Source: Flaccisagitta enflata
Lineage: Eukaryota
Length of the DNA: 64,000 nucleotides
Direction: 5' to 3'
Assembly (NCBI GenBank): GCA_965153355.1
Contig: OZ231126.1
Coordinates: forward strand, 6,758,001-6,822,000
Positions within the stretch are counted from its first letter, which is position 1. Every line of letters starts with the position of its first letter. Under the pieces are notes generated by a model. It did no database searches and was not told the origin of the DNA. It saw only the letters and a program-made list of their open reading frames with translations. A program made the position numbers and the translations under genes. This document shows, piece after piece, positions 4,888-48,200 of the stretch.

Positions 4888-6895
4888 CTTCTTTTCCGTT
4901 CCCACGCTCACTCATAGTCTTGAGGGCAGCATCGATACAATCGATAATGCACTCGATCAAAAAGATTGATCTCCACTCACCCAAAGACGCTTTCACCCCA
5001 TTCTCCATAATTCCTCGTCAATGGTCAATCGTAATCCTAGCTCGCGACTTTCCACGTCATATCAACGGACTTGATCGCTACCAATCACATCACCTCCGCC
5101 AGAATTGCTTTATAAATGTTCATTTCCTCTAGACTCAAAGAACTTTCTGTCGAAAAAGATTCTTATCAATTTCACTTCCATCCAATAAAAATTTTCAAGA
5201 CCTATTATACACTTATAGAGACAAAGCTTTGTGGAAATATGGCCAGGATGGAAAGTGGCAAAATAGAATTCAAATGTAAAGAGGAAAGTACTTCTAATGA
5301 AACGATGTCATCATCGGCCGCAATTTCCCAACTTTTGAATGGCGAAAAAAAGAAATTCGAATGTCAACTATGTTCTGCGTTGTTCACTCAAAAGTGTTCT
5401 TTAAAGAGACACATGTTGGTTCACTCGGTTGAACGTGAAAAGCCTATGAAATGTCAATTATGTTTAGCGTCGTTCAATCGAAACGTCGATTTAAAGACAC
5501 ACATGTTGGTTCATTCGGTTGAATGTGAAAAGCCTATGAAATGTCAAATATGTTTAGCCTCGTTCAATCAGAAAGCCCATTTGCAGTCGCATATGATGGT
5601 CCACACGGGTGAAAAGCCATATAAATGTGAAGAGTGTCCATCAGCTTTTTCTACAGATCGAAAATTGAAATTGCACATGCGAACTCATTCTGGAGAAAAG
5701 CCTTATCAATGCCACATTTGTCCTGCAGCATTTGCCGATGCGAATTATTTGCCAATTCATTTACGAATTCATGCGGGAGAAAAGCCCTTCAAATTTGATC
5801 TCTGTCCCTATGCTTGTGCGGACAAAAGAAAGCTAAAAAGTCACACCGATGTCCATTCTCGCGACAAATCTTTCCGCTGCGAACACTGTCAATCAACTTT
5901 CACTCGTCCAGGATCATTAAAGACACATTTGCGGATCCATAATTCGGAGAAATCATTTAAATGCGAATTATGCCCTTCTGCGTTCTACCAAAATGGCAAT
6001 CTTAAATCACACGTGAAAAGAGTTCACATGAAAGTCAAACCATTTCAGTGTAAATTGTGCCCTTACGCTTCGTCAGATAAAAATGCCTTGACGCAACATA
6101 ACCGGACACACACCGGCGAAAAGCCCTTCAAATGCGACAAATGCCCCTATAAGTGCTCCCAAAAGGGGATGTTAACGATTCATTTGCGAACCCACACTGG
6201 CGAACGGCCTTACAAGTGCGATACTTGTCCATTTGCATCGAAAAGCAACGCTGCACTAAGAAGTCATAAGAAAACTCATACGGAAGACAAACCTTTTATC
6301 TGTGACGATTGCCCATCAAAGTTTTCTCGGAAATCTCATTTGAAAGAACACGTAACGAGGAGACACACTGAAGAGAAACCTTTTCAGTGTGACATCTGTT
6401 CGTATCAAGCTAAATCAAGCTATGATGTTGCGAAGCACATGCGAGTCCATACCAAAAACACGGAAAAGCCGTTTCCATGCCAACGATGCCCATCCAAATT
6501 TGCCTCTAAACTTTACTTGCAAGCGCATTTGAAAATTCACGATGGACATAAAAAATTCCAGTGTTCAGAGTGTTCATCTGCGTTTCGCGAAAAAAGAAAT
6601 TATGAGGTTCACCTAAGAATTCATACTGGTGAAAGGCCATTTCAATGTGATCTATGCATATTCGCTGCCAAGACTAAAACCGACTTGAAATCACACCTGA
6701 GAACGCATAGCGGAGAAAAACCATTTCAATGCGATGAATGTCCATATCGATGCTCTCAACAAGGTGCTTTAAAACAGCACAAGAGAATCCATAGCAACAC
6801 TTGTTCGTGAAGAACTCAATGAGGATCATACTGGCTATCTCTTTTCAATATATACACCATGAAGAGAGGCTATTCTAATGTTCATGATGGTCAGT

Positions 6896-18428: not shown

Positions 18429-19218
18429 TGAGATCGTTTAGCGTCTAGTTTCTTAGCAAGCTCCTGAAGCGTTATCGCAAGAACTGACTCCACTGCGTAG
18501 CTGCGCTAAAGATTTGGATCGCACACCCGCTTAGGACGAATTGTTGAGATGAGCGGTCAAGTTGTCCGCGAAATCAGTCTATTCGTGGAATCCTAACGGA
18601 CAGAGAAAAAGGAAAAAGGTTAAGACAAGCTCTGTACATCAATGAAGGATACTTCTGTATGGCGCCAAAAATGATAAAAGGTCAAGGACTTACACGGATG
18701 TTGTCGAACGGTTTCCAATCTAGGCGCAGGGCAGGGAAGTCGGGGAAAAAGCATCAAAAATCGAGTCTTTAACTGAGATCGTGTAATCGAATGTCAGAAA
18801 GAAAGTCAGGGAAGCTACTTTTACTTAACCTGGAAATAGCAAAAGAATGAGTCAAAACATCACGAGATTTGAAATTATTTGGCAGCAATGAAACACTAAT
18901 AAATAGATTCGTCACGTCGTGGGAATTCGATAGAGGGGTCGAAGTCTTTCCTCCTCTAAGCGGTTGAGAAGATATAGTTCATCAATTCTCAACCGGAAGT
19001 CAGCGCTTCCGGCGCGCACGCGCGTTCCTCCCCTTCCTCCGTCGATCGAAGATCTCTCTCCTTCTTCCTCGATTTCCTCCACTCTGCAGTCGAGCAGACG
19101 CCATCTTGGATTTTCGATGGCGAGAGAGCCCCTCCTATTCTCCGGATCCGCGGAGTCGAATGCGTCCGATCGAGCGCTTCTTGACCTGGAGATGGTGGGG
19201 AATGTGGAGATTCTCACA
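18429..19218 (-). repeat. 3' LTR (790 bp)
   Basis: Direct repeat of 30139-30926; by eye 2 substitutions and 2 single-base homopolymer indels. Confidence 0.97.
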
Positions 19219-19230
19219 GTCCCCCCATTT
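19219..19230 (-). promoter_or_regulatory. Polypurine tract (AAATGGGGGGAC) abutting the 3' LTR
   Basis: Reverse complement of gtccccccattt immediately inside the LTR boundary. Confidence 0.85.
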
Positions 19231-20060
19231 GAAATATTTGCCAAAAAAATTTCAAATCTCGTATCTAACTAGTTTCTTGTCAGGGAATACCGTTCATTCT
19301 AAAAATTTACAAGCTATGACAACATCCGGGGCTCATCTCAAAAACAAAAATTTTTAAATATTACAAAGACACTATTATAAATATCGTGGATCTCGCGCGG
19401 AAAAGACGATTCAGAAAATGGGTTCTAGGAGCGGAAACACCTACCACCGTCGATCGTCCGGGCTATCGCTACGGTCTGGTCATGAATCGCTCCTCTCGCT
19501 CCATTCTGCATCCAGTCTTCATGCTAAACAAGAAAAAGAGGTAACGATACTAGATCCACGGGAATGATGGACTGAAATAAATAATTAGACTATACGCTAA
19601 GTGGTCTATACTAGTGTATAAACTATACTATACTACGTACCAACGCCCAGTTAGGATTGTCCATCACTCCAGCACGCACGTCTCTGAAATGTAAGCGGGG
19701 GGGGGGTTCCCCCACACCCGGAATGGGTATGGAGAAACGGATCAGGAGAGTTAGAACTGATTCTCATTCCACAAATCATACGCTTAATATTCTAATTTGG
19801 TACAATTGTTCATGAGCAATTCAAGACCCCCCCTACCCCTCGACACTTACGCGGGAGAGTCGCAGGGGGGTCCCCGGTGGGACCCCCTCCCCCGACCGCC
19901 CTCTAGAGAAGCGAGGACGGCCGGCCTGTCCGTCACCGGAAGCATCTCGAGTCGCCGTTGGATGATCAACCGCTAGTCTTCCGCGACGACGTAAAACGTC
20001 GGTATGATACGCGCGATTGAAGTGGGAAGACGATGGCCGGGATCATGGCGACGAGACCCT

Positions 20061-21740
20061 CTACTTCCGGCCTTTACCCCTGCCGCCCTTTCCTCCACGA
20101 TAGGATGGCGCGTCGTCTTTCCTACTGTGGCGTGGAGGGGGGTTTCTGCCGGAAGGTGGCGCATGGTCGCTCGACGGCGCGGAATGGCGTTGAGTGCCGG
20201 AAGTCGACGGCATTTGTCCGTCGGACTGAGCGAACTCAGCGCGGATGCGGTCGGCTTCCTTCTTCGCGTCGGACAGCAGCTGGGCCATCTGAGCGACCTT
20301 TGCGTCGTGCTCACCGACAACCTTCATCCTAAAGTTGTATTGTTCGATGAGCTTCCTCGCCGATCTGGCTCTATCCACGGCGTGATCGGCAGCGTAGATC
20401 GCGCGATCCATCGGAGATGAGTTGGGATAGAAGGCCGCCGGAAGAATGTCTACAACCTTTTGAATATCCTTTGACCGAGGATGATTTGGCAACTTGATGG
20501 CGACGGCCAACATCGCCTCGGTCAGAAGGTCTTCCGGCGATCGGGGAGGGCGATGTGAAGGAGAAGAAGCGGATGCCGTCGACGTTGACGACCTGTTGGA
20601 CGTCGACGCATCTCTAGGCTTCCTTTTTGGACGACGATTCTTCTTCTTTTTGTTGGCGTTTTGCTCCTCTCGTCGCTGTTGGTCGTCGTTGACGGGAGGA
20701 GGAGGAGGTGGAGGCAGATTTGCGGCTGCCCCTGCGAGCACACCCCCTTGATTGTTCGTTGTCGTCGTCGTTTGAGTTGGGACACGGATTGGTGAAATGT
20801 CACGTGACCGCTGGCGTTGAGGAGGAGGAGGCCGGGGAGCGGGATCATGTGGTAATCTCGCGGGACCATCCATCACCGTCGATGATAACGATGCGGATGC
20901 ATCCGGCGGTCCACCCCTGCTCACCCGACGTCTCTTCTCTCTCACTTCGATTTGTAGATTGTTGGCGCCAGCGTTGGCTCGTCGATCGTCTCTCGGATGA
21001 TGTTGTGGAGGATCCTGCGTCGCGGGCGTCTGACGCTGATCGCTGCCACTTCCGGTCGAACGAATAGCCTCTGCGATCCGACGAGCGGCTCCTTCACGTC
21101 GTCTTTTCCTCTGATTTGAGGCTTTTCCACGGGAAATATCTCTCAAAGTCCCATTTCCCATGTCCGCCGTTGCTCCAATAGATCTGATGTTGATGATCTT
21201 GCACAATTGGAGCGTCTCGCGTGTTTCAACCGTCGCAATCTCTCCGTCCTCTTCAACTAATTCGTCTCTGACTCTTTGCGTCGGAACATATGCTCTTCGC
21301 TCGGCTTGTGGATGAAGAGCATCTCTCTCCGCGCGTAAGCGACGCTGCGTGTCGTGGTATATCGCAGTGTGCTTCCGCTCGATGAGGGCGTCGACTTGGG
21401 CGTTGTAGATCTTCACCAATTCGACCGCTTGTTCCTGCGAGATGGAGGACAGATCACTGATGTACGGCGGGATCACCAGCGTCGCGTCAGGTGATGCTTG
21501 AAACGGCGCCGGCGCGGTCGAGTCTGCGGCCGGCGTTACTTGTAACGTCGGCGACTCCACGACCGCCTGCGACGTCTGCGGCGGCGGCGGCAGAATTGGG
21601 GGAGCAAGGGAAGGAGCAGTAAGTACCCCTTGGGGGCCTGTAGGTCGGGTCGAGCAACCTCCCCGGGAAGTCCCTCTCCCCTTCCGTCATGTTCGTTAGT
21701 GTCCATCTTATCGCCCTCACTGTCATCCTGAGTCTCGTAG

Positions 21741-21782
<42 letters not shown>

Positions 21783-22391
21783 AAGTCTAAATTGTCAGGG
21801 TCATTTAAGTCCTGTCGCTCCACTTCCTCTGCTCCGCGTGGCGAGGGCGTCCGTGGTGGAGTCCGCGTCGGCTCCCCCATGAGCGCCTCCACTCCCGAAA
21901 CTGCCGTATCGAAGCTTCGTTAGCAGCTTGTTGTCGTTTCGCCTTTCTTGCCGCCCGGGCATCGTCGTCGGCACGCCTTCTGACGCGCGCTTGTCGGCAA
22001 AGGCGTTGGCATCGAACGCGTTGAGGGCCCGAGCAGGAAGAGGGTCCGTAACGGTCCACGCGCCGGAAGACGAGTCGTTGAAGAGATGGCTGACCCCGTC
22101 GATGACGTCATCAGCTCCTCCAGCGACGGACTGTTGCAATCCGCGAAGCCTGCGTTGTTCTCTAAGGGACGCTGCCCTGGCCTCCTGCTCCTGTCTCCTC
22201 CTCTTCTTCTCCGGGTCTTTCTTCTCTTCCTCCACTTTCTTCTTCTCCTCTTCTACTCTCGCCCGCTCCTCTTCCATCCTCCTCGTCTCCTCCTCATGGC
22301 TCCTCACCAAATCGGCCTGGGCTCGCGCCATGCGCTGCCTCCTCGCTTCGCGAATCTCGTCCGGCGTGCCTTGGTTATTCTGCTGCGACAT
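20061..22391 (-). CDS. Accessory ORF3 of the retrotransposon, ~778 aa if three 1-nt deletions are corrected; charged coiled-coil, poly-Asp, Pro-rich and basic/RGG segments; function unknown
   Basis: ORF pieces 22391-21801, 22059-21805, 21892-21536 and 21560-20061 join through successive one-base shifts near 21991, 21899 and 21634; ATG in ATCCATCATGT context preceded by a TTGCAG acceptor at 22404-22403. Confidence 0.7.
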
Positions 22392-22935
22392 GATGGATCT
22401 TTCTGCAACAGTTATGCGACGATACCGACAAGGGGAAGCTTTTTAGCGTAAGATAGTGTAAACGCCTGTTTTTGGAGAAAATTCAGATTTCGAGATGTAA
22501 TAAGACGGAAAGAGGAAGACATATCCATTAACATTGAGGAAGATTAAATGGTATACGCAGACAAAGAAGCAAGACTCTTCGATCAGCGCCTCAAATGACC
22601 TCCATACTCAACAGTCAATGATATGGATAAAACGGAAAAGAAAATGACGAACAAATGCCTTTATATGGTCAATACAAGATTGAAATGGCATGGCAAATTT
22701 AGATTGTCAGTCAATCATGCAGACACTCTCAACTGACTGGGGCACCATGTACCTCTCTCTCTCCTGTCTTTACACACAAAGACATATCAGACAGACCGAC
22801 TGAGAAAAAGTAAACAAGACCAAAAAAATAATCATGAGAAAAAAAATCCTCATTTTCTGCATAGTCTTTACAAATAGAAACACTTGTGCTTCTCTCCGGT
22901 CTACTTTCTCTCTCTCTCTTCACACTTATCCGTTT

Positions 22936-25900
22936 TTAATCTGAATCCAACTCCAATCGGACGATCTTCGGCCGATCTTGAGAACAATCTTGCCGTCGGG
23001 GCGTCGGATCTGTGCTTTCGGACATGACCACCAGATCCTTCCACTTCGACGACGCGTCCCAAAGACCACTGATGCCGATGAAGCGTCTCGTCAACGATGA
23101 TGACCAATGCATCTTTTTTGATGTTAACTTCCGACTTTGTCCATTTGCTCCTTGCGTGCAGCAACTGAAGGTATTCTGCGCGCCATACCTTCCAGAAGGC
23201 GTCAACGCGGGCCTGTGCGTTTCTCCATCGGCATCTCGTTCCCACGGCGTCGTTTCCGGTCTCTGGAGGAAGAATCGCTGCCAGCGAGTGTGAGAACGTC
23301 GACGGATGCAAGATGTTGACCGGCCTCAGCGCTGATGTATCGCTAGGATCGTCGCTCAAAGGCGTGAGAGGTCGACGGTTGAGAATTCCCTCCACCTCAA
23401 TCACCGCCGTTTGGAAGACGTCGTAATGGAGCACGTGACCGGAAGTAATGGACGCCAAATGTTTTTTGAAAAGGGATACGACCCTTTCCCATACGCCGCC
23501 GTAATGAGGAGTCCCCGGAGGAATGAAGTCCCATTGGAGTCCATGCTGCTGCAGAGCCACTGTCGACGACGCGTTCCACGACTGCATCTCCTCCTTCATG
23601 ACGCGATTCGCCCCAACTAGGTTGGTACCGCAGTCTGATATGAAGCGACGCACCGTTTGCCGTCTCGCCGCGAATCTAATGATGGCGTTGATCATTGCCT
23701 CTGTGTCCATTTTGAACAACACCTCCACATGCACCGCCCTTGAAACCATGCAGGTAAACACCACTGCCCAGACTTTATGATCCGCTCTTCCATTCAGTTT
23801 CACCAGGAAGTGACCCATGCAGTCGAGTCCCACCTCCTCGAAGGGGGCCGTTGGAATAAGCCGACGTTGAGGAAGAGGCGCCATCTGCTGCTTCATAGGA
23901 TCTTTAAAGTTCCTTTGGCACGTAACACAATGGTGGATGACTGTCTTCACCGCCTGGAGACCACGAAGAATCCACACAAAGCGTCGCAGTTGGCACAAGA
24001 CGTGTTTTGGGCCTGCATGAAGATCCTGATGATGAACATGGCGAATCAGAGAAGCGACGTTTGGATCCTTCGAAGGGAGAATCATCGGGTATTTTTCGTC
24101 ATGGCCGATATCTGCATTCACGAGTCTGCTCCCGACACGCATCGTTCCTTTCTCGTCGACAACCGGATTGTGATGGCGTAGGGTTTTACAGATCACCTTG
24201 GCGCCGGCGTCGTTGATCAGCGGCGTCGTTTTTCCCACCGCCTTCAACTTGGTTATCTCTCCATGGAAATGTTTGAACTGGATCGCGTTGATCAAGCGGC
24301 GTTGTGCGTCGTACAATTCAGCCATAGATACAGAGTATGGATTTGGCAGCGTCGTTGTCGCTGTTCTAGTTTTTGCCTTCACCTTCTGTCTCCACCGCTG
24401 CGTGCACTTCACAACCACGGCGATCAAACGCAATTTCGCCACCCACTCCTGGCGACGGGCGGCGACTGCATAGGCGAACATTTCCTTTTCCTTCTCTCCT
24501 TCCTTCTCCTCCACCGTTTCTGTCGCGACGGCGTTGATCGACGCTTCCGGCGCCGTCGCGATGTTCATCACCGGCCACTCAGATTTGGGAAGGTAGAGAA
24601 ACTTCGGACCGAAATGGAAAATGTCCCATTTTTCCTTGTCGCCGGCGTCAATACCCCGCGAACAATAGTCCGCGGGGTTACTCTCCGAATCAACCCACCT
24701 CCATTGAGAATCACTTGAGCCGCTGTGGATTTTTGAAAGTCGGTTTGCGAAGAAGCTCGGACGTTTAGACTTATGGTCGAAGATCATCTTCAGCACCGCC
24801 TCTGAATCTGACCAGAGCGTCACCATGTCCTCAGTCACCTTTGGAATGGTCCTCTTGATGAACAATTTGAGTTTCACCGCTTTCTCTGCCGCTGTCATTT
24901 CTAACCTCGGCACTGAATTATGATGCGACGCTTTTGACGCATCAAGAGGGACGACGTGAGCCTTGGCGCACAAAATGGTGACGCGGATTGTTCCATCTTC
25001 ATCTTCCACCAACCAATAGCCCACTACTCCAAAACCAGGGATGGCGGCGTCGCAGAAGATGTGAACCTCTCGTCGAACGGCCTTCACAATGCCCCATTCA
25101 ATGTGGCGCGGAATTTCGATCTGGATCAGCAATGGAGTCGCAGAGTACCATTTGGCGAAGCGTTTGATTAACGCCTCCTCCATCGTCGAATCCCATCCCT
25201 TCTCGGAAGCTCTCGTCAACTGAAGACACCTCCTCCCTTCAAGGGCGCGGGGGGCAGTGAAGCCCAATGGATCATAGTTGTCGGCTTGCATGGAGACCAA
25301 TTCGCGAGGAGTTGTTGCCACCCTCTTGCATGCTTCTGGATCGCATCTGAAGATGAAGCAGTCCGTCGACGGCAACCATTGGACTCCCAAGACCTTCGTC
25401 GGCTCCTCGAGTTTGGCGCTCAAGTCGACTGCGACATTCGGATCCTCGTCCATCACCTCCACCGCGTTCGATTTCCACTTCGTTAACGTAAATCCGCCGC
25501 TTTTCATGGCTGCGATGAGATCCTGCTTCAGCTGCAGTGCCTCGTCGACTGAATCCGCACCACCAGAGCCATCATCGACGTAGAAGGCATGCCTCAACAT
25601 TTCGTAGACGTTTTCCGGGAAGTCGGGCTTGATCTTCTCTGCGTGATGGCGTAAAACATAGCTGGTAACGAGACTCGATGACACAGATCCAAAAATGTGC
25701 GCCAAGAAGAGCATCACGACCGCCTCTCTCATGCTTTTGTCGGTGAACCACATATATCTGAACGTGTCCGCATCCTCAGGATGGACGCGGACGTTATGAA
25801 AGAACGCCTTTATATCAGTCATCAGACCGATTTTATAAAGGCGAAATTTCATAAGAACTTCAGTCAAGACGTTCATGATATTCGGACCTCCAATCAGTAG

Positions 25901-26950
25901 TTCATTGAGGCAAATGCCGCCAGTCTCCGCGCGTCCATCGTGACAAATCCGCGTTTTATTTCTTTCCTCCACCACATGGATGGGTAAGTACCAGCGGGGC
26001 GATGAGATGCTTGCGTCGTCGTTCGCCGGATCAATCTCAATCGCCACGCCCGTATCTACAAATTTGTCCATTTCTTTGAAGACGCGATCGCGGAGGTCAT
26101 GATTATTTGAGAGTTTGTATCGGAGACTTTTGGTCCTCTTAATCGTCATCGCGCGTGCGTTGACAGACTTGATAATCTCGATGATCTTCTCCTTGTCATA
26201 GCGCCATGGAAGTCCCACGACGTATTTTTGGAGTTTTTCGTCGAAGTATATCGTCTCCATCACCCGCTTCACCGCGCGGCGATTCTCTTCAGACTGGCCC
26301 ATTTCTTCCTCCGACACAATGGCGAAGTCGTGATAGAACATGCGGTCGAGAGATTTGCTCAATGCGACGTTATCCACGTGGATCGCGTTAATAACAGCGG
26401 TATCATCTGATCTCCGTCCACTCTTCCCTGCTACAGTCCATCCAAAACCGCATCTGAAGGCTGTCAAAGATCCTGAGGGACCTCTTCTTGCCTCCACAGG
26501 CATCGTCGCGTCGTAATGGGCGGCGCCGATGATCATTTGGACAGGACCATTTGCTTTTGGAAATGGAAGATCGCGAAGATGAGATTGATTTGTGAAGTCG
26601 CGTTGGCATGGAGCAATATCCGCTTCACCCGTCAATAACTCTCCCGTTAGTGCGTTGCTGATGTGGACGTTGTATTCCTCGTCAATCGATGAAAGGATGA
26701 AGGACGCCAAAACTTTCTCCTCCACCACTTCACAATTGACCGTATGCACGCGCATCAGCATCTTTTCCGTTGGTAAGTCTAGTTTTTTAACGATTTGAAG
26801 CGATAAAACGTCACGATCCGCACCGCTGTCAATCATCCCCAACACTACGGTGGAACGGCCCGTCGATGCGTTGGTGATTTTTACAGGAACAATCGGACGC
26901 GTGACATCATCCTCCGCGACCACCGTCCTCATCGCGGAGGTGGCAGCGAG
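22936..26950 (-). CDS. pol: Bel/Pao Pol: aspartic protease, reverse transcriptase, RNase H, integrase
   Basis: MIDSGAD (PR); DIKAFF, FRYMW, YVDD (RT); IFCDA, VPRLEM, WSDS, NPADYCSRG (Pao RNase H); H-x4-H...CVTC, LDCMG, SDCGTN, GGVWER (IN). The conserved tail VRKAQIRRPDGKIVLKDRPKIVRLELDSD is restored by adding one A at ~23017 and one at ~22978. Confidence 0.95.
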
Positions 26951-29900
26951 TCACGCCTCCATCACCCTTCCTTCATCAGATGCAGAATCATCCGTCGACG
27001 AGCTGCTTGGGGGTGCTGGAGGAACGGTTTTGGCGGCGGCGGCGGCCGCGGCTAATGCGGCGGCATTCGGCGTCTTGAACGTGATTCCTTCTCCATTCCC
27101 TTTTTGCTTCCATTGGCGGTCGTGCAGCAAAGTCGCGTGTCTCTTGTTGCAAGATGAGCATGTTGGCTTGTCTTTGCAGTCGCGCGCCGAATGGTTTGGG
27201 CAGAAACAATGAAAACATAGACGTTTCTCCGCCAACTTCTTCACTCGATCCTCTGCTGATGGGATGGCTTCCAAAACGTTGCATGAATGAGAATTGTGGC
27301 GACCTCCACAAATGTTGCAGATATCGTTGGGTTGCTGCTTCGGAGGTGAGTTGACGAGCTGTTCCTTAAACGTCGCCGGACCAACTGCCGTCGCTGCAAC
27401 CTTCGTCGGTTTCGGCGCCATGCGTGTTGGTTCTTTGAGGTTGTTGTACGACACCCAATGCTTCACCTCCTCGATGAGTTCTTGGAAGCCGTAAGCCGTA
27501 CCATGGCGAGCTTGTTCACGCGCGCTTGCTTTCCAATAGTCCGTCGAGATGTGTGGCACCCTCGCGTTGATGATGCGGCGAATGTGGACGTCACGATCAC
27601 ACTCTCCAGGTACATTCAGCAATTCTGCGACGTTTTCTAGTTTGTACAACGTGCCAATCAACGATTGATGGGCTCTCATATCGTTTTCTGGGACCTTTCC
27701 TTTCCTGCAGATGCTGTCGACGGCCGATTGGAATGGGTTGGCGCTCGTGTTGAACATCTCGTCCAGGCGTCTCCACAAGGTGCTGTAGACACGGCGCATA
27801 TTGTGCGCCTTGATGATGAGTTGTTGACCGTCGATAATTTCCTTCGCTGGATTCGCGAAGACGTTGGCCAATTCAGTCACTTTGTCGATTTCGTCTAGCT
27901 CGATGTTGGAGGCGGCATTTTCGAATTTAGACTTGGCGATGATGTAGTCGATCGGCTCGAGGTATCCATACGCTTCTCTTGGGCGTGCTGCGCGCATTTC
28001 TCTCAATCCCACGTCCTTTGCTCTGACGCGGGCGTCGTAGGCGATCGGGTTGTCGATGAAAGAAGCGGCGTTCATCCTCTCGGCGAAGGATTGCGAATGC
28101 GCGAGGCCATTTCGCGCGGAGTCACTTCCGGTTTGACGTTTTTGATACATAGGAGGCGACGGCGTTGGGGGTGGCGTCTTCCTTGACTTCCGTCTGTCGA
28201 CGCGTTCGAACCCCTCGTCATCGAAGACGTCGTCGACCAGGGGGCGCTGACTCCCGCGTGCATTCCGGGACGCTTGTGGAGCTGGAAGATCACCCGCGAT
28301 CTGGCGGACGATAACCGGCGAGCTTGGTGATGGCGGCGTCGATTTGCGCGGTGGAACACGTGTCTGCAAAACGACGCTGTCCTCCAGGTTGAGGTCGCTG
28401 ATCAATTGTTGGACCCTCGCCATTGCGTCCGCGTGATCCATCGCGTTCTTTTCCTGCTCCGCTGCATCTTGTCGCGTGCGCAGTTGCTCGTGGAGAGGAT
28501 GTTCACGTGCAGCTGGGGGTGGCGTTTTGGAAGGTGGTTGTCTCTGCTGGCTTTTCTTTTGTGCCTCTCTCCTCTTCCTCTCCTCCTCCTCTTTCCTTTT
28601 CTTCTCTTCTTCCTTTTTCTTTTCTTCGCGTCTTTTCTTCTCCTCCATCCTCTTTCTTTCTTCCGCGTCTCTTTTTGCCACCGCCTTCCTTCTCTCCTCC
28701 TCTGCTTTCCTCTCTGCTTCCTTCCTTTTCTTTTCTTCTCTCTCTTCTTTCTCTCTTTTCTCCTGTGCGATCTTGTTTTTCAAGTTCGTCCTCCTTTTCT
28801 CCTCCTGCTCCTTTCTCGTCTCCTCTGCCTTCTTTCTCACTTCTTCAGCGTGGATACGTTGTCTTTTCTCCTCCTCCTCTTTCTCTTTCTTCCTCCTCTC
28901 CTCCTCCTCCCTTCTTTTCCTCTCGTCGATTCCGGCCGTGACCGCGTCTGTCCGGGCAGTAACGGCTGCGTCCAATGCGATGTTTGCCGTCAACTGCCGG
29001 GCGTTCTCTTCGCGTTGTTGAGATACCGACTGCGAGCTGAGACGGAATCGCGTATTTGCGCGTGCTTCTCTCGCCACCGAGCGTCGGACTTGGTTGACGT
29101 CGTTGACAAGACGTTGGACGACGTGCACCATCGCGTCGCTTTGAGCGTTTTTGTCGCCGTCGGCAATCGATTGCTGTAACATGTTGAGAAGATCTTGTGT
29201 GGGAGGGGCGCCGCCAACGGCGCCTGGAGGAAGGTCGGCGTCGTCGTTCGGCCATGACGTTTCCATCGCGTCGTCGGGGTCATCGTCTCCATCGTCTCTA
29301 GTCGACAAGAAGCGCGACCTCGCCGGCGTCACCGGCGTCGGAGGTTCAAAGTTTATGCGTATCTGCTCGGCGTCTTCTATCGCGCCCGGCGTATGGGGCG
29401 GCGCGTTGTGGCGTTGATCCGCTGCATTGAGATTCGCTGCTTCCGTACCGACGGGCAAATCGTCCTCTCCCGCGTCTCCATCGTCGCCGGTCGTGTTCGG
29501 CGTCGATTTGCGTCGTCGCGAAAGGGACTGGACGAAATGCGTCGACGACCCCATCGTCATCTCGAGAGCGCGTTTTGCTCCAGTCTCCGGTGACTCGTCG
29601 TGGATGTCATGGTAGGTCGGCAGAAATAGATGCGACGCGAAAGTGTTTTTGTCGTGGAAGCATGTTTGGTCCCACAGTTTTCGTACCTCCGTCAATGAGC
29701 TTTCGGCCGTCGATAACAGTGACGCCGCTTTGTCGGGGTTATTGGTCGACTCTGCGTGTGAGTAAGTCTTTGTCTGATTCACAAGTCGCCACGCCGCTAA
29801 CCACACCTCCTTTCGAAGGCAGTCCATGTCTTGGTAAAAGTCCAATATATCGTCGTCGTCGAGGGTATCGGCTTGCTTCAACGCCGACATGTAGGCGTTG

Positions 29901-30094
29901 CGCGTGTTGCGTAGCGCCTTTCGTAACCCGCGAAGCGTCGTAGCCACGGGGTCCATTGCGCCCGCGTAGACGGATGAGTCGGAAACGACGGACACGCAGT
30001 CGGCTGGTCGAAAGGTTTTTCTGCGTTGATTTGGCAGCGAAGGTGGCGGCATTGACATCGCGTCGGCGTTGGCGTTGTTGTTGGCGGTCGACAT
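26951..30094 (-). CDS. gag: Bel/Pao Gag, 1047 aa, long charged coiled coil and three C-terminal zinc knuckles
   Basis: CNICGGRHNSHSC, CFHCFCPNHSARDC, CSSCNKRHATLLH (typical Bel/Pao triple knuckle); uninterrupted ORF starting 45 nt inside the 5' LTR boundary. Confidence 0.93.
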   Translation of the reverse strand: MSTANNNANADAMSMPPPSLPNQRRKTFRPADCVSVVSDSSVYAGAMDPVATTLRGLRKALRNTRNAYMSALKQADTLDDDDILDFYQDMDCLRKEVWLAAWRLVNQTKTYSHAESTNNPDKAASLLSTAESSLTEVRKLWDQTCFHDKNTFASHLFLPTYHDIHDESPETGAKRALEMTMGSSTHFVQSLSRRRKSTPNTTGDDGDAGEDDLPVGTEAANLNAADQRHNAPPHTPGAIEDAEQIRINFEPPTPVTPARSRFLSTRDDGDDDPDDAMETSWPNDDADLPPGAVGGAPPTQDLLNMLQQSIADGDKNAQSDAMVHVVQRLVNDVNQVRRSVAREARANTRFRLSSQSVSQQREENARQLTANIALDAAVTARTDAVTAGIDERKRREEEERRKKEKEEEEKRQRIHAEEVRKKAEETRKEQEEKRRTNLKNKIAQEKREKEEREEKKRKEAERKAEEERRKAVAKRDAEERKRMEEKKRREEKKKEEEKKRKEEEERKRREAQKKSQQRQPPSKTPPPAAREHPLHEQLRTRQDAAEQEKNAMDHADAMARVQQLISDLNLEDSVVLQTRVPPRKSTPPSPSSPVIVRQIAGDLPAPQASRNARGSQRPLVDDVFDDEGFERVDRRKSRKTPPPTPSPPMYQKRQTGSDSARNGLAHSQSFAERMNAASFIDNPIAYDARVRAKDVGLREMRAARPREAYGYLEPIDYIIAKSKFENAASNIELDEIDKVTELANVFANPAKEIIDGQQLIIKAHNMRRVYSTLWRRLDEMFNTSANPFQSAVDSICRKGKVPENDMRAHQSLIGTLYKLENVAELLNVPGECDRDVHIRRIINARVPHISTDYWKASAREQARHGTAYGFQELIEEVKHWVSYNNLKEPTRMAPKPTKVAATAVGPATFKEQLVNSPPKQQPNDICNICGGRHNSHSCNVLEAIPSAEDRVKKLAEKRLCFHCFCPNHSARDCKDKPTCSSCNKRHATLLHDRQWKQKGNGEGITFKTPNAAALAAAAAAAKTVPPAPPSSSSTDDSASDEGRVMEA

Positions 30095-30138: not shown

Positions 30139-30926
30139 TGAGATCGTTTAGCGTCTAGTTTCTTAGCAAGCTCCTGAAGCGTTATCGCAAGAACTGACTC
30201 CACTGCGTAGCTGCGCTAAAGATTTGGATCGCACACCCGCTTAGGACGAATTGTTGAGATGAGCGGTCAAGTTGTCCGCGAAATCAGTCTATTCGTGGAA
30301 TCCTAACGGACAGAGAAAAAGGAAAAAGGTTAAGACAAGCTCTGTACATCAATGAAGGATACTTCTGTATGGCGCCAAAATGATAAAAGGTCAAGGACTT
30401 ACACGGATGTTGTCGAACGGTTTCCAATCTAGGCGCAGGGCAGGGAAGTCGGGGAAAAAGCATCAAAAATCGAGTCTTTAACTGAGATCGTGTAATCGAT
30501 TGTCAGAAAGAAAGTCAGGGAAGCTACTTTTACTTAACCTGGAAATAGCAAAGAATGAGTCAAAACATCACGAGATTTGAAATTATTTGGCAGCAATGAA
30601 ACACTAATAAATAGATTCGTCACGTCGTGGGAATTCGATAGAGGGGTCGAAGTCTTTCCTCCTCTAAGCGGTTGAGAAGATATAGTTCATCAATTCTCAA
30701 CCGGAAGTCAGCGCTTCCGGCGCGCGCGCGCGTTCCTCCCCTTCCTCCGTCGATCGAAGATCTCTCTCCTTCTTCCTCGATTTCCTCCACTCTGCAGTCG
30801 AGCAGACGCCATCTTGGATTTTCGATGGCGAGAGAGCCCCTCCTATTCTCCGGATCCGCGGAGTCGAATGCGTCCGATCGAGCGCTTCTTGACCTGGAGA
30901 TGGTGGGGAATGTGGAGATTCTCACA
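30139..30926 (-). repeat. 5' LTR (788 bp) containing a putative 100-nt intron (30402-30303)
   Basis: Direct repeat of 18429-19218; minus strand GTAAGT ... CTTAAC, pyrimidine tract, TTAG. Confidence 0.95.
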
Positions 30927-35647: not shown

Positions 35648-43890
<8,243 letters not shown>

Positions 43891-44011
43891 GTGGAAAAGA
43901 AGGAAACAGCTGAGCTCGTAGGTGAGAAAATAATGGCTCTGAGATGACAGGGAAATTGACTCGTGAGACGCCATGTGGAACTGAGTGTGGAGAAATGGGA
44001 AAGAGAGAGAC

Positions 44012-44170
<159 letters not shown>

Positions 44171-44173
44171 CAG

Positions 44174-44334
<161 letters not shown>

Positions 44335-44615
44335 TAGAGGGAAACAAAGAGAGACAGAGAGAATATGTTAAAATAGATCAAACCTGTAATCAAAGTGACA
44401 GTGAGTACGACAGATCAGAATACGTAAATAGATCAAGTGTGGCCACTATTTCAGAACGCACTCTAAAAGCACTCGATTATGGACACTACCAGTCATGACG
44501 CCACTGATACTCAGTGATAGTGTGGTCAGTCAACCAACTGCTTTTCAACACCTCCCCCGTTTCTTTAACCCATGTCCATACTGGCATCGCCAACCCTTCC
44601 TCCACTGCAACCACC

Positions 44616-47036: not shown

Positions 47037-48200
<1,164 letters not shown>

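Follow-up and report, generated by a model that had tools for sequence, protein, structure and literature searches.

A conserved non-envelope third open reading frame in a Bel/Pao retrotransposon of Flaccisagitta enflata and its possible role as a nuclear regulator

Introduction

What does a long third open reading frame (ORF3) encode when it occupies the envelope (env) position of a long terminal repeat (LTR) retrotransposon? This question is raised by a stretch of 64,000 nucleotides from the genome of Flaccisagitta enflata (GenBank assembly GCA_965153355.1, contig OZ231126.1, positions 6,758,001 to 6,822,000), here called the window, which contains on its minus strand a Bel/Pao element with a gag-like gene, pol and, downstream of pol, ORF3. 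All positions below are those of the window. Judged from its related proteins, ORF3 is a real accessory gene of one Bel/Pao lineage, which is selectively maintained and encodes ~761-815 amino acids in intact copies. It is not an envelope protein. With a rough probability of 0.5, we consider ORF3 to be a genuine non-env accessory gene whose product would be a nuclear nucleic-acid-binding regulator expressed from a subgenomic mRNA. Extra genes in LTR retrotransposons show how such elements gain regulatory complexity towards retrovirus-like life cycles, and for animal elements only one non-env ORF3 that has been functionally dissected, CERV of Cer1, was found in the literature searched.

ORF3 as a gene

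ORF3 starts with an ATG at 22391 and ends with a stop codon at 20063-20061, on the same strand as gag and pol and between pol and the polypurine tract. Its final 526 codons form an open stretch that none of 2000 shuffled sequences equalled (the longest reached 319 codons), and the chance that 768 codons stay open, given the base composition, is ~4e-12. A word-indexed search with the 541-aa piece of the window as query, in which 8000 candidates were scored, returned 7 proteins at E <= 0.001. These include three uninterrupted full-length relatives, i.e., P0003 (761 aa, 94% identical to the 541-aa piece), P0004 (768 aa, 85%) and P0006 (815 aa, 62%). With P0004 as query 5 relatives were obtained, none of them new, with identities down to 54%, and the relatives overall are 54-94% identical. 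An exhaustive search of 1,835,955,588 representative proteins gave only 10 matches, all close kin (56-92% identity) and none named. The gene is multi-copy, with 82, 5, and 6 member sequences in three clusters.

Where the reading of the window changes frame (see below), P0003, P0004, and P0006 read on unbroken. The start is conserved as well, with P0004, P0006 and the fragment P0020 all beginning at the methionine homologous to that at 22391. Over the last 540 residues conservation is even (0.67-0.88 per 20-residue block), including the parts that are modelled as disordered. Since relatives at 54-94% identity carry a single uninterrupted ORF, the family represents a real and maintained gene; open frames of 761-815 codons that persist down to 54% identity are incompatible with neutral decay. 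A first-pass annotation of this DNA had proposed that the pieces of ORF3 form one gene of ~778 aa, and the continuous relatives of 761, 768, and 815 aa bear this out. The fragments P0015, P0016, P0017, and P0019 end in sequence abruptly unlike the family, as would be expected of a family that includes decayed copies. Among metagenome contigs the ORF3 alignment gave 399 pattern matches and pol 17, none of which was a relative; the same holds for the 40 pattern matches of the ORF3 alignment among viral contigs.

The element that carries ORF3

The retrotransposon is 12.5 kb long and is arranged as follows, in the order of its own transcription:

30139-30926, minus strand: 5' LTR (TG...CA), which aligns with 18429-19218; target-site duplication CCTTT at 30931-30927
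26951-30094, minus strand: gag-like ORF of ~1047 codons, with its ATG at 30094 and a TGA at 26953-26951
22901-26950, minus strand: pol of the Bel/Pao type, 1349 codons, recognised by its Pfam domains, with 49 relatives
22392-22900, minus strand: AT-rich spacer between pol and ORF3, 509 nt, GC 0.385, with 11 ATGs and a TATAAA at 22665
22403-22408, minus strand: TTGCAG, a splice-acceptor-like hexamer; putative exon start at 22402
20061-22391, minus strand: ORF3 as a whole, broken in the window copy; homologous reading in the frame of the ATG at 22391-~21985 and again at ~21641-20064
21640-21985, minus strand: zone with all frame-changing and several in-frame length differences, with a (GAC)n poly-Asp run at 21781-21735 inside it
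21021-21479, minus strand: helical block 1, containing the invariant arginine-rich motif NQRKRRR...ARR (helices 310-350, 382-397, and 408-435 of P0004)
20217-20546, minus strand: C-terminal helical domain, modelled as three short helices and one of 62 residues (predicted local confidence, pLDDT, 77.6)
20064-20108, minus strand: conserved Gly-Arg/Lys C-terminal tail, from the family alignment and motif scan
19219-20060, minus strand: non-coding spacer between ORF3 and the 3' LTR, 842 nt, predicted to be a structured RNA, with GGGGGGAC at 19226-19219
18429-19218, minus strand: 3' LTR; target-site duplication CCTTT at 18428-18424

The element is a young Bel/Pao LTR retrotransposon. Its LTRs, of ~790 bp, are 99.5% alike (2 mismatches and 2 one-base gaps, both in T runs, in an alignment of 790 columns), have TG...CA termini, and are flanked at either end of the element by the 5-bp target-site duplication; the polypurine tract GGGGGGAC lies just before the 3' LTR. 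The assignment to Bel/Pao is based on pol, which carries Peptidase_A17, RVT_1, Integrase_H2C2, rve, and DUF5641. Peptidase_A17 (5.2e-28, 98.5 bits against a cut-off of 22.3), DUF5641 (1.2e-18, 67.6 bits against 23.1), and Integrase_H2C2 score above the Pfam cut-offs, and RVT_1 and rve slightly under theirs. The GC content per kb is 0.48-0.58 within the element and 0.35-0.45 in the flanks. ORF3 lies within the LTR pair and its target-site duplication, in agreement with its earlier description as GC-rich, coding-like sequence in the env position on the gag-pol strand. No family was matched in a Pfam search of the gag-like protein or in an Rfam search of the element.

The gag-like protein is unusually long (~1047 aa), with a long N-terminal extension, a capsid-like part, and three Cys-His knuckles near its C-terminus; its middle part contains a region of ~200 residues with E/K/R-rich repeats. 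Gag and pol share one frame, in which only one TGA, with CTC after it, stands between them. The database relatives of pol, 49 in number, are mostly separate proteins of ~1300 aa, which suggests that this stop is a conserved feature. If so, pol would be made by read-through of the stop codon and not by frameshifting.

State of ORF3 in the window

The ORF3 copy in the window is disrupted: uncorrected, it terminates at 21803-21801 after 196 codons and, if the breaks are not errors of assembly, its product would be limited to the N-terminal 196 aa. The breaks were counted in a frameshift-aware alignment to the window DNA of P0003, P0004, and P0013, the closest relatives that span the zone; the distant P0006 and P0020, whose alignments are noisier and contain many more events, were left out of the count. 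The three relatives agree on five frame-changing length differences, near 21979 (within a stretch where the window has a net deficit of ten bases against them), 21915, 21864-21876, 21848, and 21642, and there are several in-frame length differences in 21985-21640 as well. The three one-base shifts by which the pieces had been joined in the first-pass annotation are thus an undercount, the alignment giving at least five differences; the path with three shifts is also open, but reads ~20 nt in a non-homologous frame. Both tblastn and a three-frame read show the homologous reading visiting all three frames between ~21985 and 21640, and the short motif TTDA, encoded in the window only in the other frame, supports the extra pair near 21870-21848. 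At least two of the shifts had further been placed in short homopolymers; the surroundings of the breaks are mixed, with a G5 run, a C3 run, and CG-rich sequence that is not homopolymeric. An intron across the zone was considered and rejected, since the relatives read it as coding sequence.

Whether the window copy is truly intact and the breaks were introduced by assembly or polishing is a matter of about even odds with real slippage. The length differences are confined to ~340 nt around (GAC)n and are absent from the remaining ~2 kb of ORF3 and from the 7.2 kb of gag-pol; within these 340 nt they are more numerous than the low level of substitution predicts, long identical stretches standing beside many differences of 1-2 nt. 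This, the position of both LTR gaps in T runs, the runs of G and C that adjoin some of the breaks, and the net shift, which restores the starting frame, argue for an error. However, with a (GAC)n microsatellite nearby the clustering could also be due to real slippage, and broken copies do exist in the family, as P0015, P0016, P0017, and P0019 indicate by their abrupt departure from it.

The ORF3 protein

All sequence features that had been described for the ORF3 protein are present, i.e., an E/R/K-rich N-terminus, a poly-Asp run, a Pro-rich stretch, the nuclear localisation signal (NLS)-like NKKKKNRRPKRK, and the C-terminal RGGKGGRGKGRK tail. In the five proteins scanned (the window pieces and the three full-length relatives) the best 19-residue Kyte-Doolittle mean is 0.33-0.93, hence below 1.0, and there is no hydrophobic segment resembling a transmembrane helix or a signal peptide. 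The number of cysteines is 0-3 per protein, so that no Cys-rich ectodomain is present. The first-pass annotation, which had reported the lack of all three, was right in this respect.

An AlphaFold2 model of P0004, made from a 14-row alignment, has a mean pLDDT of 51.5, with 481 of the 768 residues below 50, and its confident parts are helices at 10-68, ~120-140, 310-350, and 611-712. The protein is therefore predicted to be largely disordered with a few long helices. When the C-terminal domain of the window copy was modelled alone, the three short helices and the 62-residue helix listed above were obtained at a pLDDT of 77.6; a two-copy model of this domain scored 0.00, which, with the controls not run, speaks neither for nor against self-association. 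The modelling of the helical blocks with AlphaFold and Foldseek, which had been proposed as a check, thus produced the helices but no fold match.

Short motifs were scanned for in 11 family members. The arginine-rich NQRKRRR, which has ARR after it and falls in a helix predicted with modest confidence, is found once each in 9 of the 11, the other two being C-terminal fragments that fall short of the site. The same nine members contain SPIR as their sole [ST]-P-x-[KR] site, which the same two fragments are without. Around NRRP most members have a cluster of K and R that resembles a nuclear localisation signal. LT..ML..AI is present in 7 of the 11 members, within a predicted folded helix, and matches the spacing of a class 1a export signal as quoted in the available part of PMC10309623. 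The Gly-Arg/Lys tail is identical in six members and nearly so in two more. With motifs that are invariant inside predicted disorder, this family may offer a tractable case of a function driven by short motifs.

Search for known relatives

No relative of ORF3 was recognised beyond its own small family, so that among 1.84 billion representatives it appears to be an orphan, and no host gene that could be its source is visible there. Pfam gave no family above the cut-off for the window pieces or for 7 family members; DUF7900 matched the N-terminal helix below its cut-off (17.3 bits, cut-off 27) and was rejected as compositional. The best E-value in a sequence-profile search of the PDB was 0.11, and a PDB sequence search with the tail returned nothing at E <= 10, although so short a query has little power. 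Foldseek against PDB and BFVD, run with the full-length model of low confidence and with the C-terminal domain, yielded no matches at E <= 0.001. A wide fold search with VIA gave for the C-terminal domain nothing but generic long helices with tied scores (best Z 6.1), and in the ESM Atlas neither this domain nor the whole protein had a usable match. An N-terminus derived from gag was also considered. The blastn and tblastn matches between ORF3 and the element's own gag occur only in E/K-rich parts and are compositional, and this origin was rejected, the best E-value in BLASTP with composition adjustment being 4.1.

Expression and the 3' spacer

The TTGCAG that had been noted 11 nt before the ATG is indeed present at 22408-22403. 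An exon starting at 22402 would bring the ATG 11 nt further on, and the frame is open from 22402 to this ATG; by analogy with CERV of Cer1 (see below), ORF3 may be fused to upstream exons. Taken alone TTGCAG is weak evidence for splicing: it is expected by chance in ~1% per 30 nt, and any YYNYAG in 14%. In the spacer between pol and ORF3 there are 11 upstream ATGs, whose frames run for 3-40 codons; the last 130 nt before 22391 have none. These short frames make it unlikely that ORF3 is translated from the full-length RNA, so that a subgenomic mRNA would be needed. A splice to 22402 would skip all of the upstream ATGs, and four would remain in a transcript that starts ~30 nt past TATAAA (22665). 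Among the sequencing runs listed in a search, 20 of 24 rows contain part of 19219-24000; they come from one organism and from marine metagenomes, in 9 studies. Five of the rows are RNA runs that share 10-22% of the sampled words, an overlap that is evidence neither of expression nor of habitat.

For the 3' spacer (842 nt, from ORF3 to the 3' LTR) the minimum free energy (MFE) is -292.3 kcal/mol, against -258.0 +/- 5.3 kcal/mol for shuffled sequences (z -6.4; 0 of 20 shuffles were as stable), whereas the folding of the spacer between pol and ORF3 is ordinary (z -1.4). The 3' spacer holds G/C-rich hairpins and is a possible cis-acting RNA element; as predicted here, this structured RNA may be a partner of the ORF3 protein.

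Proposed function and alternatives

We propose that the product of ORF3 is a charged and mostly disordered scaffold, built from an E/R/K helix at the N-terminus, the acidic poly-Asp run, a Pro-rich linker, and two helical modules, in which invariant motifs would be embedded: the arginine-rich helix, the single S-P-x-R site, the NLS-like K/R cluster, the hydrophobic pattern resembling a nuclear export signal, and the Gly-Arg/Lys tail. It would be expressed from a subgenomic mRNA, formed by splicing at the acceptor-like site at 22402 or by initiation within the spacer. The protein would enter the nucleus, bind nucleic acid, most likely the RNA of its own element, and function in trans, either in post-transcriptional regulation or as an adaptor for export or packaging, much like CERV of Cer1 or Rev/Rex. 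For the nuclear location, the binding of RNA, the route of expression, and the role, this proposal draws on motifs, architecture, and one precedent. The nucleic-acid binding, condensate formation, anti-silencing or RNA-chaperone activity suggested in the first-pass annotation would likewise be deduced from composition and conserved motifs.

Several observations weigh against it. ORF3 is broken in the window while gag and pol are open and, if the breaks are real, ORF3 was not needed in cis for the insertion of this copy. The ORF3 of the relatives is known as proteins, its position beside a Bel/Pao pol being seen in the window only. Overall confidence of the AlphaFold2 model is low, the short basic motifs could equally serve binding of DNA, chromatin or protein, and the pattern resembling an export signal falls within the predicted folded helix.

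A more specific version of our proposal, put forward only tentatively, is that Bel/Pao elements of a marine animal lineage independently became "complex" retroelements. ORF3 would then be a Rev/CERV-like shuttling protein that binds the structured 3' RNA through its arginine-rich helix and Gly-Arg/Lys tail, is switched by phosphorylation at S-P-x-R, and permits unspliced genomic RNA to be exported or packaged; through the tail and the acidic tract such a protein might attach to chromatin as well. Chromatin may also be the target as such: the acidic tract, basic clusters, and tail would anchor the protein or pre-integration complexes to it, or engage proteins that bind or modify histones, and so steer integration or block heterochromatin on new copies. 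The conserved poly-Asp tract and basic motifs, the K/R cluster resembling a nuclear localisation signal, and the constancy of the tail, whose composition presumably recalls the N-terminal tail of histone H4, are in line with this possibility. Still, we hold it to be rather unlikely, since Pfam, the PDB profile search, Foldseek, and VIA revealed no recognisable chromatin-reader, histone-chaperone or integrase-binding domain, and the tail found no PDB sequence match, for what so short a query can tell. A largely disordered, charged protein with RNA-binding-like motifs, restricted to one lineage and without known kin as might be expected for a gene in conflict with its host, could, alternatively, suppress small-RNA or other host silencing by sequestering RNA or silencing proteins in assemblies of its disordered charged regions. 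This seems distinctly unlikely in view of the even and high conservation (54-94% identity), unlike that of an arms-race gene, and of the lack of similarity to any known suppressor in Pfam, the PDB profile search, and Foldseek with BFVD.

ORF3 could also be a passive passenger, i.e., a captured fragment of a host gene or an unrelated gene that lies there by chance and has no role for the element. The single genomic context and the broken state of the window copy next to open gag and pol fit such a passenger, but we regard it as very unlikely: the ten matches in 1.84 billion representatives are all close kin (at least 56% identical), the gene is multi-copy (clusters of 82, 5, and 6), it is open over 761-815 codons down to 54% identity, its GC content is like that of gag-pol and unlike that of the flanks, and the position of its start codon is conserved. 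A match to a known env or a captured host gene, one of the outcomes named in the first-pass annotation as contrary to its view, did not occur in Pfam, in Foldseek or among the 1.84 billion representatives; the lack of a continuous ORF, another such outcome, is not what the relatives show. Finally, other extra ORFs of Bel/Pao elements are env-like, as the accessible part of PMC13524379 describes and as had been stated before, and a highly derived envelope or membrane-fusion protein may be considered for this position. This explanation is close to refuted: there is no signal peptide or transmembrane-like stretch, the protein has 0-3 cysteines, no fusogen family (Pfam) or fold (Foldseek with PDB and BFVD, on a full-length model of low confidence) was matched, and disorder is predicted for most of its length.

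Other features of the window

Outside the element, a frame of 564 codons at 5116-6810 (plus strand) encodes an array of C2H2 zinc fingers (zf-H2C2_2 1.4e-103, 13 stretches) and is probably a host gene or exon. Another open frame, of 1101 codons at 41072-44377 (minus strand), has no Pfam family and at its upstream end runs into an (AG)n array (44002-44362). The window is very rich in simple repeats (e.g., at 47037-48200 and 39026-40158), with 36 rows at a score >= 200 in the repeat listing; they include a 386-copy (CAT) trinucleotide array, 27 copies of a 42-nt unit, and numerous arrays of di- and tetranucleotides.

Comparison with known systems

Additional ORFs (aORFs) occur in plant LTR retrotransposons of both Ty1/copia and Ty3/gypsy, according to the part of PMC7264820 that was available, and no sequence relation between those described there and ORF3 was detected. 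In bdelloid rotifers, the accessible text of PMC5408684 reports non-env ORF3 types (GDSL, DEDDy, CC, and TM) in Ty3/gypsy-like elements, which are typically separate, spliced transcription units and of which the best-characterised types are enzymes. As in the element studied here, these are family-specific third ORFs downstream of pol that need not be env, and a coiled-coil type (CC) exists among them. However, their elements are Ty3/gypsy-like, and neither Pfam nor the search of the representatives gave any homology to ORF3.

Within Bel/Pao itself the extra ORFs of Cer7/13 and Tas are env-like. The same applies to those of Roo (F-like) and of mosquito elements (chuvirus-like, gB-like) as far as described in the part of PMC13524379 consulted. 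They share the superfamily and the position in the element with ORF3, but are membrane glycoproteins related to viral fusogens, whereas ORF3 is without the env features tested for (hydrophobic segment, Cys). A literature search, with subscription journals largely outside its scope, yielded no description of a non-env ORF3 in a Bel/Pao element.

Rev and Rex of complex retroviruses are small proteins (~100-190 aa) that combine an arginine-rich helix, for RNA binding and import, with multimerisation and an export signal, and act on a structured target in the viral RNA. Their likeness to ORF3 lies in the proposed logic; the counterparts in ORF3 are candidates at the level of motifs, and there is no homology.

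CERV, from the Ty3/gypsy element Cer1 of C. elegans, seems to be the closest functional analogue of ORF3, although the two are unrelated in sequence in so far as the 1.84 billion representatives contain only close kin of ORF3, no direct comparison with the CERV sequence having been made. According to the accessible part of PMC10309623, CERV is non-env, lies in the env position, is lineage-restricted and nuclear, and is needed for the export of genomic RNA. The protein described there has 517 aa and combines two globular domains and flexible linkers with a candidate NLS and a zipper-like helical module; a proline-directed phospho-site is reported to be essential. CERV is expressed from spliced mRNA, with TTTCAG or TTGCAG as acceptors and N-terminal exons taken from gag. 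Set against this description, ORF3 is likewise non-env, in the env position, and without homologues outside a narrow group; its one invariant S-P-x-R site parallels the phospho-site of CERV, and it is preceded by an acceptor-like TTGCAG, one of the acceptors of CERV. It differs in belonging to a Bel/Pao and not a Ty3/gypsy element, in being longer (761-815 aa) and mostly disordered, and in starting at a conserved ATG of its own while lacking similarity to the gag of its element (best E 4.1); no fold similarity between ORF3 and CERV was detected. An unrelated, conserved non-env ORF3 in a second superfamily would let one ask whether adaptors for RNA export or chromatin arise repeatedly in such elements.

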